DNA of 64,000 bases from Candidatus Bathyarchaeia archaeon (GTDB lineage: Archaea > Thermoproteota > Bathyarchaeia > Bathyarchaeales > Bathycorpusculaceae), in assembly GCA_038883855.1 (NCBI GenBank), contig JAVZLH010000002.1, positions 32,001 through 96,000 on the forward strand, given 5' to 3'. The notes below the pieces were generated by a model. The model was not told the DNA's origin. It did not search any database and saw only the letters and a list, made by a program, of their open reading frames with translations. Positions 11,209 through 17,045 of this stretch are shown piece by piece; the stretch's first letter is position 1; each line of letters starts with the position of its first letter. Both the position numbers and the translations under genes were made by a program.

Positions 11209-11414
11209 ACACCTAAAACCTTTACTTAAATAAGGGCTGGCGTATTGGCTGTACCCCAAAACAACGTAGCGAATTCTCCCATCAAATCCAATGAGTTTGT
11301 CGAGGACACGAGCATATTTTCGTTGTGATAACCCAACGTGATATATCTCTCGATGCAGCCCATAAAATATTAATTCATGTATGATTGATGGAAGGGTGAA
11401 GGATTGTGTTGACA

Positions 11415-12238
11415 ATGATTGATAAGTCTGAGGATAGGAATTTGGTGTTGTTCTTCTTGGTTGCTTTTGCATGGTCGTGGTTTTTCTGAACACCGCAGAT
11501 ATTGGGTTTTAACTTTTATGTGGCTCCATTTGGTCCATGTATGGCTGCTTTTCTACTTACCCATCTTCAAGAGTGTTATAGAGGAGTTAAGAGGTTGTTG
11601 GTAAAAGGGTTCGACCCAAGGATAAGAAAAGTCTGATATGTTCCTGCCTTTTTGTTATGGCCCATTATTGCAGGCTTTTCCATTTTGGGAGCGTCGTTGA
11701 CTGGGGGTCTACTCCTGAGCTGGTCACCCTGTTTCAGCCATGGCTAATTCTTTGGAATTTTATCTACATATTCTTTCTCGGCGGTCCTTTTCAAGAGGAG
11801 TTCGGATGGAGTGGTTACGCGCTTCCACGTCTCCAGGCGCGCTACTCGGCCCTTATCTCCAGCGTGGTTTTAGGAGTGATATGGGCTATTTGGCATCTAC
11901 CTTTGAACCTAATGTATTTTGCGGGTCCCCAATACCAAGTTGGACTTGCATGGCTGTCTAGCACAGTTATTCTGTTCATTTTCGTATCAATACCCTTCAC
12001 TTGGATATACAACAATACTGGCGGCAGCATCTTAACCGCTTTAATATTCCACACAATGCTTAACCTTTCAACCTATGTTATCTTCCCAGTCTTTGAAACA
12101 GAAAACGGCCCAGCCTACTACTTCTTCTTAATAATCTTTGTTGCCATAATTATTTTAGCGATCTTTGGAACAAAAAGAATGGTTCGAGATAAAAACCAAG
12201 TTAAAACTGAAATCAATAGTCGTGATAATTTTGGATAG
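11415..12238 (+). pseudogene. CPBP/Abi (CAAX type II) intramembrane protease, disrupted
   Basis: MIDKSEDRNLVLFFLVAFAWSWFF* followed by frameshifts; EEFGWSGYALP (conserved R lost), WAIWHLP, FHTMLN. Confidence 0.8.
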
Positions 12239-12787
12239 GTTCATTATTTACTATTTCAGCTTGGTTTTGTTAATTGGCGGTTTGGCCTACGCTCCGTGGG
12301 TTTTGGCTTCGTATGGCATGTTTCCTTCCGAGCCCGTTTTTGTTTTTGTGATTGTTGGTGGTGTCTCTCCAACGATTGCCGGCTTATAATGGCCAAACTT
12401 GAATTTGGGGGAGGAGCAGCAGAATATTTGTTCGGTCAGTTTGGTCGTAAGGGCTTTTCAAAATTATGGTTTTTAGTGGCTGTTTTTGTTCCTTTGGTTC
12501 TTGCAGTCTTTGTAGTCTTGTTACGGTCTATAGTTGGAGGAACATATGCTCTGGACTTGATGAAGCTGATTGAGTTTCCGCCGATTCTAATTGTAAGCTT
12601 CTTGACGAACATGTGGGAAGAAATAGGATGGAGAGGCTATGCTTTACCTGCACTGCAAAAGAAACACGATGCGCTAATTTCGAGCCTAATTGTTGGGGTG
12701 TTTTGGGCATTCTGGCACTGGCCACATTTTGCAGTCAAAGATAGCGCCATGGCAGTTAACTATCATAATAATTATTTTTGCATTTAA
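12230..12787 (+). pseudogene. Second CPBP/Abi protease, frameshifted and truncated
   Basis: GGVSPTIAG / WEEIGWRGYALP..WAFWHWPH; ends before the HxxxN motif. Confidence 0.8.
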
Positions 12788-13015
12788 ATCGGATTCTCTA
12801 TCCAGGAAAAAGAGCAATACTCCACTAACGGCTAAACTGGCACGATACTTAAATTTCATGATGCAAGTGAATTTTAAAAGTTCTTTTAACGATGAATAAA
12901 AAGAAGCAATAAACTCGTGAGGATATGGCAAAGCTAAAATGAACTTAGTTTAAGGAAACAACACAGATTGAAAAAAGTAAAAAGGAAAGAAATAGGAATG
13001 GTAAGGGTGGATTAC

Positions 13016-13069
13016 TTACGGTGGTCCTCGATCGGTTATTTTGTATCTGAGCACTTTTTCCATTATCAT
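13016..13069 (-). CDS. 17-aa micropeptide MIMEKVLRYKITDRGPP
   Basis: GGAGGTGATC SD (13082-13073) just ahead of ATG, BRE/TATA (CGAAAAAC TTATATAT) at ~13137-13122, and a long pyrimidine/T-rich tract after the stop. Confidence 0.7.
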   Translation of the reverse strand: MIMEKVLRYKITDRGPP

Positions 13070-13086
13070 ACAGATCACCTCCATTA

Positions 13087-13175
13087 TTCTCGTTTTTTCA
13101 TTTTTATAATGTGAGAAAAAGATATATAAGTTTTTCGCATTGTAACAAAATTTTAAAACGAGAAAAATTTATAAA
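13087..13175. promoter_or_regulatory. Divergent promoter with nested inverted repeats (putative operators)
   Basis: TTCTCGTTTT (13087-96) / AAAACGAGAA (13155-64) perfect IR; inner AATGTGAGAAAAA / TTTTTCGCATT; TATA boxes at 13122-29 (-) and 13168-75 (+). Confidence 0.65.
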
Positions 13176-13215
13176 CCACACCTACAAGTAGCATAATAAA
13201 GTGTGGTGATTAAAA

Positions 13216-13599
13216 ATGATCAACAAGGGATATTCGATCGAGATCAAATCTGAGAGTAAAACAGTTGAAGTTAACTTCACTTCAGCCATTAGCTTTGATA
13301 TGGTAGAGGAGGCACTAAACCAGTTAAGAAAGTATATTGCAGAGGATTATCGAATTAAGTTGATAGGCTACATTAATAGGGAATACAACTATCTTAGAGC
13401 CTTCATGCTGGCTCTTTCACTTTTTGGTAATGAGAGTCGTGTAATTTTTGTGAATAAAGCAAGATTCAATAGGGCTGAAAGAAGGCTAAAAAAGAGACAA
13501 ATGCAAGAGCTGAGGAGCAAGGGCTATAATGTTAAACAAATATCCGAGGAATTGGGTGTACCTTTGAAAACAATCTATAGATGGCTTATGGAGAGATGA
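13216..13599 (+). CDS. Uncharacterised protein with an N-terminal alpha/beta domain and C-terminal resolvase-like HTH
   Basis: LRSKGYNVKQISEELGVPLKTIYRWL HTH; GGTGA SD and TATA upstream. Confidence 0.85.
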   Translation: MINKGYSIEIKSESKTVEVNFTSAISFDMVEEALNQLRKYIAEDYRIKLIGYINREYNYLRAFMLALSLFGNESRVIFVNKARFNRAERRLKKRQMQELRSKGYNVKQISEELGVPLKTIYRWLMER

Positions 13600-13617: not shown

Positions 13618-13974
13618 CTAAACAAGGAGAACTGATATTATTCCACTTAGGAAAATACCGTCAAAGTTCCGGTTCCGCCCGATACTTGCTATTCTAGCAC
13701 CTATCTCCGGAATTTTGTGCAAGTTTGATATATCTGCGCCGATTAAAGTGCCGAATACTCCAGAAGCGTATGCTATAATTGCTGGTGCGCCTGAAGGTAA
13801 AAGGTACGCCATATAAGCCGCTGTTAACGGCGGGACAAAGGCTGGTGTAACAATTCCTAAACCCTTAACAGGTTTGGCAACAAGGTGCGTAACTAATGCC
13901 AAAATCCTCAAAGAACCAGCTTCTGAAGAACGGAAAACGTCTCCTCCTAAACCATTCAGGGAACTCCTCATCAA
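13618..13974 (-). pseudogene. DUF1614 membrane protein, C-terminal remnant
   Basis: AKPVKGLGIVTPAFVPPL..AYASGVFGTLIGADI.NL..ASIG...FDGIFLSG; N-terminal half missing. Confidence 0.7.
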
Positions 13975-14095: not shown

Positions 14096-16330
<2,235 letters not shown>

Positions 16331-16970: not shown

Positions 16971-17045
16971 GGGCCGGTAGTCTAGCTCGGTTAGGACATC
17001 CGCTTGACGTGCGGAAGGTCACCGGTTCAAATCCGGTCCGGCCCA
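16971..17045 (+). tRNA. tRNA-Val(GAC), no encoded CCA
   Basis: GGGCCGG/CCGGCCC-A acceptor, TCCGC-TTGACGT-GCGGA anticodon arm, ACCGG TTCAAAT CCGGT. Confidence 0.95.

Follow-up and report, generated by a model that had tools for sequence, protein, structure and literature searches.

We analysed a window of 64,000 nucleotides (nt) from the genome of a Candidatus Bathyarchaeia archaeon (assembly GCA_038883855.1, contig JAVZLH010000002.1, positions 32,001 to 96,000 of the forward strand; positions below are those of the window) and describe here a module of two divergent genes. One gene, on the minus strand, encodes a micropeptide of 17 aa ending in R-G-P-P, and the other, head-to-head with it on the plus strand, encodes a 127-aa protein with a helix-turn-helix (HTH) domain. 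The module is probably a regulatory micropeptide with a dedicated transcription factor, and its two genes share a highly conserved control region. A full-text search of the literature on archaeal arrest, leader and nascent peptides and on RGPP in archaea, covering main texts, returned no description of such a module.

Pairing and coding character of the micropeptide

Homologous loci were collected by scanning one genome per species, which gave 35 loci with a full-length relative of the HTH protein, in records titled Bathyarchaeia, Methanomethylicota, Nitrososphaeria/Nitrososphaerota, Thermofilaceae, Thermoprotei and Culexmicrobium. At all 34 loci with upstream DNA and at the window, hence 35 genome loci, a divergent small open reading frame (ORF) with [I/V]-x-x-[R/C]-G-P-P is present, situated 175–228 nt upstream of the HTH start on the opposite strand. 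Omitted from these counts were L024, which has only 40 nt of upstream sequence, and L040–L043, which are partial matches to the HTH only, three of them from Streptomyces; L026, for which no start linked to a Shine-Dalgarno (SD) sequence was picked, was left out of the start-codon and peptide alignments. Metagenome contigs, scanned independently, had the motif at 66 of 67 usable HTH loci, and in the sole exception (L113) one C-to-T change has turned it into RGPL; of the 80 metagenome loci, 13 had been set aside, 9 with less than 260 nt of upstream sequence and 4 with the N-terminus of the HTH protein cut off. The metagenome set contains 50 distinct core DNA sequences, and it overlaps with the genome set because some of the contigs are the sources of metagenome-assembled genomes.

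The search was also run from the peptide side, with a 20-nt degenerate pattern for I-T-D-R-G-P-P in 401 genomes across the phylum. This pattern matched 16 genomes, once each, while the reversed control gave 1 match, and in 15 of the 16 the HTH gene was located divergently alongside the peptide core, 190–230 nt away. Because the 16th match (L141) has neither an ORF with a start codon nor the promoter motif, it is taken as the expected chance hit. The co-occurrence of micropeptide and HTH gene is far beyond chance, and the gene for the 127-aa HTH protein has the micropeptide gene as its obligate divergent partner. The first-pass annotation, made from the letters of the window, had proposed a candidate peptide–regulator module, and this proposal is supported by the 35 genome and 66 metagenome pairings, in which an SD-preceded ORF with a conserved (T)DRGPP does accompany the HTH homologues upstream on the opposite strand. 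Among gene-caller predictions the micropeptide is represented by 26 clusters at E < 1e-3, all unnamed or ‘hypothetical’ and without a Pfam domain.

In the window, the minus-strand ORF at 13084..13016 translates as MEVICMIMEKVLRYKITDRGPP*. The coding sequence of the micropeptide (13016..13069) starts with the ATG at 13069, in agreement with the family alignment, continues for 16 more codons and ends with TAA at 13018–13016, giving the 17-aa product MIMEKVLRYKITDRGPP; an alternative in-frame ATG at 13084, within the SD, would give a 22-aa micropeptide. As read from the sequence, the SD GGAGGTGATC (13073..13082, minus strand) is located 3 nt ahead of the ATG. In an alignment of the intergenic regions of the 35 loci (A2), a promoter made of a B recognition element (BRE) and a TATA box, GCGAAAAACTTATATAT (GCGAAAAA plus CTTATATAT), was placed at 13122..13138 on the minus strand, and G(C/A)GAAAAnTTTATA in this promoter is invariant or nearly so. 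From the TATA spacing, transcription is predicted to start near 13099. Two oligo-T runs, T5 and T6, at 12971..12984 on the same strand begin 32 nt past the stop codon and are likely an archaeal terminator; an oligo-T stretch follows the Pro-Pro codons on the 3′ side in 32 of the 35 loci, at a median distance of 19 nt, and the micropeptide mRNA is likely ∼125 nt long and ends at these runs. The first-pass annotation had described an intact, AT-rich mini-gene with its own SD, BRE/TATA and pyrimidine-rich terminator. This description holds, as the ORF is complete, each of the elements is read directly in the sequence, and the GC content of the module region is 0.30–0.37 compared with 0.426 genome-wide. 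A sequencing run (X1), which is probably DNA and uninformative here, gave one 151-nt contig in the HTH gene (13346–13496) and left the peptide gene uncovered.

The SD of the micropeptide is long. An SD of at least 4 nt stands 4–10 nt ahead of the ATG (GTG in one locus) in 34 of the 35 loci, and in 18 of the 35 the match extends to at least 8 nt. In the genome to which the window belongs (G000), a match of at least 8 nt was found for only 1 of 639 long ORFs, and the 5-nt SD core lies upstream of the first ATG in 89 of the 639, in a survey that assigned starts crudely by taking the first ATG. The 10-nt SD of the micropeptide is thus an outlier for its genome. The full complementarity to the archaeal 16S 3′ end named in the first-pass annotation is presumptive for this organism, whose assembly contains neither that 3′ end nor a 23S rRNA.

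We next consider whether the small ORF is translated into a product under selection. The first two codon positions of T-D-R-G-P-P are all but fixed among the 35 sequences, whereas position 3 is variable. The Thr codons are ACT (15), ACC (13), ACG (4) and ACA (1), with a third-position entropy of 1.54 bits, and the Asp codons are GAT (25) and GAC (9); all four Gly codons are in use (1.89 bits), and Arg is drawn from both of its codon families (AGA 19, CGA 7, CGT 3, CGC 2, AGG 1). Pairwise codon differences over KITDRGPP number 1885 synonymous versus 526 non-synonymous, and the remaining two frames are stop-rich. Because third positions vary freely while the first two are fixed, and because Arg is written with both AGA and CGN, selection acts on the protein. 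This substitution pattern identifies the small ORF as a protein-coding gene that is under purifying selection. It is barely credible, then, that the conserved stretch is a small RNA or a DNA site in which the ORF is incidental. The Pro-Pro codons contain a CCUCC complementary to the GGAGG of the SD, and the two pair in about 11 of 35 minimum-energy folds, but where the first Pro codon differs, in two loci, the SD has no compensating change. Moreover, substitutions have a period of three, Arg switches between AGA and CGN, and the ATG and SD are conserved at fixed spacing, while the RNAalifold consensus structure is essentially absent (−0.5), and Rfam gave no match at gathering threshold for the module and no more than two chance-level rows when E up to 1 was allowed.

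The peptide itself is conserved in its C-terminal part. The core reads RGPP in 32 of the 35 genome loci and CGPP, with Arg replaced by Cys, in three (L008, L019 and L038); of the 50 distinct metagenome cores, 48 encode Arg at this position and 2 encode Cys. The HTH protein was searched for changes that would compensate the three Arg-to-Cys peptides, and only conservative differences were found. The distance from Met to Pro-Pro is 21–22 aa in 26 of 34 loci; in the window, L020 and L022 it is 17 aa. Ahead of the core there is an amphipathic pattern, with Leu at −8 in 29 of 35 loci, Ile or Leu at −5 in 31 and Ile at −1 in 34; the sequence there is otherwise free, and the peptide is hydrophilic, basic and not membrane-like. 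Conservation halts at the second Pro, and the following codon is Ile in 19 loci, a stop in 5, Leu in 5, Thr in 3 and something else in 3. The tails after Pro-Pro have 0 to 31 residues and unrelated sequences, and their median length is 3 codons compared with 5 and 17 in two control frames. In one genus (L133, L134 and L135; P0150, P0151, P0153 and P0154) a ten-residue basic tail, IIKKIVSKIK with close variants, is kept, but these copies (n = 3) are too similar to judge selection. The Pro codons are constrained beyond their amino acid: the first is CCT in 33 of 35 loci (0.37 bits), although the genome-wide share of CCT among Pro codons is 0.22, and the second is CCR (CCA or CCG) in 34 of 35.

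The regulator and the shared control region

The regulator gene lies at 13216..13599 on the plus strand, and its product consists of an N-terminal alpha/beta domain and a C-terminal three-helix HTH. The first-pass annotation had named both domains, and both are recovered: residues 89–124 match Pfam PF13384 (HTH_23) with 30.4 bits against a cut-off of 24.6, and an AlphaFold model built from a 36-sequence alignment (predicted local distance difference test, pLDDT, 86.6) contains a strand-strand-helix-strand-helix-strand domain of 85 residues, a long linker helix and the three-helix HTH. A collection of 5.8 billion proteins holds 73 homologues with 55–84% identity, named in their sources only as ‘helix-turn-helix domain-containing’ or ‘hypothetical’. 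An exhaustive HMMER search of 1.84 billion representatives added five full-length clusters, and the remaining hits were HTH repeats. Pfam gave HTH families only, with no STAS and no TPR match, and searches of the protein against NCBIfam, PADLOC, PHROGs and PDB profiles likewise returned only generic HTH-level matches.

In the model, the fold of the C-terminal HTH resembles the DNA-binding domains of resolvase, Tc3 transposase, TrpR, DeoR and SorC (Z 5.9–6.8, and 6.1–6.8 without SorC). The N-domain is less easily placed. Its best Foldseek matches are RsbV (6m36) and SpoIIAA (E 8.9e-3, probability 0.96, TM 0.37–0.46), its comparison with the STAS region of SLC26A11 (residues 470–552) reached a VIA-align Z of 5.3, short of the noise guide of Z 8, and a search of the ESM Atlas with the N-domain gave no usable match. 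On this weak similarity between a modelled fold and known ones, we tentatively call the N-domain STAS-like. It has the same order of strands and helices as the STAS anti-sigma-factor antagonists (RsbV, SpoIIAA) and the SLC26 STAS domains, but differs from them in being fused to an HTH, in lacking a Pfam STAS match and in having no partner kinase gene. Its most conserved stretch, GYINREYNYLRAFMLALSLFG, spans the third strand, a loop and the next helix, and this surface could be a ligand site. When the 127-aa protein was modelled together with the 17-aa peptide, the complex scored 0.00; run without controls and with a peptide below 30 residues, this prediction is no evidence either way.

Between the two genes, alignment A2 shows two BRE/TATA units directed away from each other, both reading G(A/C)GAAAAnTTTATAA. 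The HTH-gene promoter CGAGAAAAATTTATAAA lies at 13159..13175 on the plus strand, where CTTATAAAnnTTTCTCA is conserved in the minus orientation, and the SD of this gene, GTGGTGAT (13203..13210, plus strand), is read 5 nt before its ATG. The sequence TTCTCA-N19-TGAGAA occurs twice in the intergenic region, 46–47 bp apart, and both palindromes are conserved across the loci, as are both BRE/TATA pairs. Palindrome B, of 31 bp (13087..13117), is placed between the TATA box and the SD of the peptide gene and spans its predicted transcription start, and palindrome A (13134..13164), which has the same 6-N19-6 geometry, has half-sites that are the BREs of both divergent promoters. A weight matrix made from the other loci, with the window excluded, scored palindrome B at 32.7 and palindrome A at 21.2, the second-best score in the genome; outside this intergenic region it reached at most 11.9 anywhere in the genome, compared with maxima of 7.9–14.0 in shuffled genomes. 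Hence no further site in this genome matched the matrix above the shuffled maxima, and the exact pattern occurred once elsewhere, which is chance level (0.35 expected). The HTH recognition helix PLKT(I/V)YRW is invariant across homologues, and this matches the nearly invariant half-sites of the palindromes. From these sequence features we infer that both palindromes are candidate operators, unique to the module locus in this genome.

The layout of a very small peptide gene and a divergent HTH regulator gene, with an intergenic control region shared between them, recalls the Rgg/SHP and RRNPP pairs of Firmicutes, in which a TPR receptor responds to an exported and processed peptide that varies between pherotypes. 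By analogy, the micropeptide could be a secreted pheromone, a role that the first-pass annotation had entertained, and the HTH protein its cytoplasmic receptor-regulator, and the concentration of conservation in the C-terminal part of the peptide would suit this. However, this reading is very improbable. The regulator carries a small, weakly STAS-like domain and no TPR; the 17–22-aa chain has no signal peptide or hydrophobic export segment; no protease, exporter or oligopeptide importer is conserved nearby; and the motif is invariant across classes, with no diversification into pherotypes. The same annotation had supposed that the peptide was once processed by the adjacent CPBP proteases, and this too finds no support, as CPBP genes adjoin the module in the window only among the loci compared.

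Finished peptide or arresting nascent chain

We tentatively favour a self-contained, autoregulated two-gene module of Thermoproteota that works through the finished peptide rather than through an arresting nascent chain, while giving this reading slightly less than even odds. In such a module the HTH protein would bind the two 31-bp palindromes (TTCTCA-N19-TGAGAA) as a dimer, with palindrome A covering both BREs and palindrome B spanning the transcription start of the peptide gene, and would thereby keep its own gene repressed and the peptide gene still more tightly so. Because no other such site is found in the genome, the peptide would be the only output of the circuit. On derepression, the consensus promoter and the unusually long SD would yield abundant 17–22-aa peptide, whose invariant end ...(K/I)ITDRGPP may be the recognition epitope of the mature product; Pro-Pro may fix the mature C-terminus by halting exopeptidase trimming of any encoded tail. 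A leading guess for the target is the conserved N-domain of the regulator itself, which would provide feedback. A second, conserved cellular target seems about as likely, and would make the module a regulated effector or toxin-like device. A finished product is preferred because RGPP is not avoided in three module-bearing genomes (see below) and because the tails are short.

Several observations weigh against this proposal. A free peptide does not explain why the Pro codons are CCT (33 of 35) and then CCR (34 of 35), a bias indicative of a constraint acting on mRNA, tRNA or translation. In nine of the 35 loci the motif is followed by a tail of 7–31 residues, which is awkward for a C-terminal epitope unless the tail is trimmed. 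On the DNA side, the outer half-sites coincide with BREs, which are also read by TFB, the centre-to-centre spacing of half-sites, 25 bp, is unusual for an HTH dimer, and further operator sites could have escaped detection in a genome that is only 85% complete. A purely self-feeding circuit has no obvious use, and therefore a second target is needed. Finally, the operators are deduced from conservation alone, and the HTH–DNA and peptide–protein interactions are putative.

The first-pass annotation had suggested an arrest or leader peptide, and RGPP is indeed the right motif for arrest. According to Fujiwara et al. (PMC12992588), RGPP is the most robust arrest core in the four bacterial peptide contexts they describe and is refractory to EF-P; in the stalled ribosome the P site is taken by the third residue and the A site by the fourth, the Arg of the RxPP core is irreplaceable, and in their bacterial set RGPP is the most excluded 4-mer, with RGPP:AGPP at ∼0.13:1. 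The bacterial RAPP/RGPP peptides (ApdA, ApdP and ApcA, related to SecM) share the identical R-G-P-P core, and, as with the micropeptide, a small ORF carries this core at its C-terminus or close to it, with conservation as far as the A-site codon and a variable N-terminal part (PMC12992588, PMC10951233). In those accounts the bacterial peptides are secretory or membrane proteins of 100-plus residues, encoded upstream of the gene they control, and force-sensing. The micropeptide, in contrast, is archaeal, has 17–22 aa, a divergent HTH partner and neither an export signal nor a cis target; the module-bearing proteomes sampled do not avoid RGPP, and its Arg is not strictly conserved.

A stand-alone archaeal ribosome-arrest peptide would use the stall, or its relief by aIF5A, proline or a small molecule, as the signal, with the HTH protein setting the amount of mRNA. 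Several features would agree with this. Conservation ends exactly at the second Pro, which corresponds to the bacterial A-site residue, and the tails are unconserved; a distance of 17–22 aa to Pro-Pro implies that the entire chain is inside the exit tunnel; the constraint on the Pro codons is as expected if the identity of tRNA or mRNA matters in decoding; and a very strong SD is consistent. If the micropeptide arrests, the CCU-CCR codon rule and the 9–10-nt SD would belong to the stalling mechanism, and there would be no downstream cistron, unlike in the bacterial examples.

Other findings nevertheless weaken the case for arrest in this family. The Arg that bacteria cannot replace is Cys in L008, L019 and L038. 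In a small sample of ∼700,000 residues (ORFs of at least 150 aa from the module-bearing genomes G000, G136 and G424), RGPP was observed 5 times compared with 4.9 expected from composition or 4.6 from a Markov-1 model, and RAPP 5 times compared with 5.3 or 4.4; RGPP:AGPP was 5:7, on small numbers. Moreover, RGPP occurs internally (...RGPPAVDFN...) in a conserved 751/752-aa protein of G424:C1 and G136:C1 (L150–L229), and is thus translated within ordinary proteins of module-bearing archaea. Outside bacteria, the assays of Morici et al. (PMC10951233) in rabbit reticulocyte lysate gave no arrest with RxPP, which that report ascribes to a different pose of the U2504 equivalent, the base on which Arg stacks in bacteria, and a preprint describes base 2504 as flipped in archaeal ribosomes generally (10.1101/2024.11.12.623245).

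Host ribosomes point in the same direction. The 23S rRNAs of three module-bearing genomes (L145 of G136, L146 of G126 and L147 of G424) carry G2447A, A2448G, A2453C/U, U2500C, U2504C and G2509U (E. coli numbering), with C2501A in addition in G136 and G424, and A2503C, C2452U and A2062U in G126. G162, by contrast, combines the module with a canonical peptidyl-transferase centre (U2504, G2447), and the peptide core does not differ between hosts with U2504 (G162) and those with C2504 (G126, G136 and G424). A 19-nt pattern for the variant centre matches 55 of the 401 phylum genomes; clades with a divergent peptidyl-transferase centre have already been described (10.1101/2024.11.12.623245; PMC9976906). 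The module is present in 6 of these 55 genomes and in 9 of the 346 others, whose centre is canonical or whose rRNA is unassembled, a comparison confounded by phylogeny.

Leader peptides act in cis, and this can be examined on the peptide side of each locus. For the 32 loci having an ORF of at least 80 aa on that side, the next ORF is convergent in 17, and the ORFs belong to many unrelated families; because the neighbour is so often convergent and differs by lineage, the peptide is not the leader of a conserved downstream gene, and the leader part of the earlier suggestion falls. The oligo-T runs, at a median of 19 nt, also leave little between the core and the likely end of the transcript. In bacteria and fungi, short leader peptides such as the tryptophanase leader and the arginine attenuator peptide sense metabolites and act in cis on a downstream cistron or terminator. 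The micropeptide resembles them in its size class of ∼20–25 aa, in a chain contained in the tunnel and in a conserved, Pro-containing C-terminal end, but differs in having nothing conserved downstream.

We therefore regard stand-alone arrest as unlikely, because there is no cis target, Cys variants exist, RGPP is not avoided, the rabbit and 2504 data speak against it, and the core is indifferent to U2504 or C2504. The stronger statement, that this is a first natural archaeal arrest peptide, a self-stalling RGPP micro-ORF switched by the STAS-like/HTH protein whose stall or relief (by aIF5A, proline or polyamine) would serve as signal or brake, is in our view slightly more doubtful. Of the arrest proposal, then, the motif stands, whereas the three Cys loci, the undepleted RGPP and the silence of RxPP on rabbit ribosomes count against it.

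Genomic setting and significance

The module is patchily distributed, being present in 15 of the 401 phylum genomes sampled. It was not found in two genomes of the same genus, each 93% complete, in which a synteny search gave scattered weak matches only; it was likewise not found in the other 58 relatives searched, which gave only two weak partial matches. In its own genome, which comprises 1.1 Mb and is 85% complete, the HTH gene is single copy. Among viral contigs the pattern search gave 70 matches, none of them a relative.

Neighbouring genes are housekeeping genes that vary by lineage and include DtxR-FeoAB, KaiC-like, family-B polymerase, arginase family, HypD, DHDPS and CDC48 genes, among others. 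In the window, the CDC48 gene at 14135–16330 is an intact 731-aa ORF with 91–93% identity to its orthologues. The gene order HTH-DUF1614-CDC48 is common to the window and L028, and in L006 and L013, too, CDC48 lies 3′ of the HTH gene; among the CDC48-linked loci CDC48 is 88–93% identical and the HTH protein 68–83%. This synteny, together with the identities, fits vertical descent of the module. The first-pass annotation had held every neighbour to be a pseudogene, which is true in part: two CPBP ORFs and the DUF1614 ORF are fragmentary, but CDC48 is intact. The two tandem CPBP (Rce1-like) genes, at 11400–12900, are seemingly broken across frames, and the DUF1614 ORF at 13618–13981 matches only profile positions 76–171 of 171, while its L028 orthologue matches 96–171; decay or assembly error could account for this fragmentation.

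Some further associations were seen around the module. A KaiC-family ATPase gene and a 169-aa ORF with no Pfam match adjoin it in L008, L011, L016, L017 and L028, on either the HTH side or the peptide side, and this may be loose linkage or lineage synteny. In L022, L023 and L024, genes of the arginase/agmatinase family and of family-B DNA polymerase lie directly 3′ of the HTH gene; the former linkage would be relevant, as polyamines and aIF5A bear on the translation of Pro-Pro, but may be coincidence. The only Rfam match at gathering threshold in the whole 64-kb window is a tRNA gene at 16971–17045 on the plus strand.

With this setting in view, a toxin–antitoxin-like or stress-effector pair can be weighed, in which the peptide would harm or brake a conserved cellular machine, with the HTH protein acting as its dedicated repressor and perhaps also neutralising it by binding. 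A closed autoregulated circuit with no other operator in the genome would suit such a pair, as would the patchy distribution, with two same-genus genomes in which the module was not found, the variable neighbourhoods, and a promoter that is strong yet seemingly tightly covered by operators, combined with a strong SD. Yet the two genes are divergent, each with its own BRE/TATA, and do not form a bicistronic operon; the module is single copy, has no mobile-element or viral context, and has PADLOC matches at the HTH level only. The CDC48 synteny in four loci points to vertical descent, the peptide is hydrophilic and basic, not membrane-like, and a core invariant across classes is unusual for toxin–antitoxin systems. 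We consider this reading improbable, more so than either form of arrest. A finished peptide in an autoregulated module remains the account we lean towards.

To our knowledge, archaeal functional micropeptides are almost uncharted, and we know of none from uncultured Thermoproteota. This gene of at most 22 codons is mostly missed by gene callers or labelled ‘hypothetical’, and yet its core is invariant across several classes. With a dedicated regulator and a testable control region, the module offers a clean entry to archaeal small-protein biology. Because its motif is the strongest known bacterial ribosome staller, it also provides a natural test of RxPP arrest on archaeal ribosomes, in hosts that include lineages with divergent peptidyl-transferase centres. 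If the peptide binds its regulator, the module would be an archaeal case of intracellular peptide-controlled transcription.

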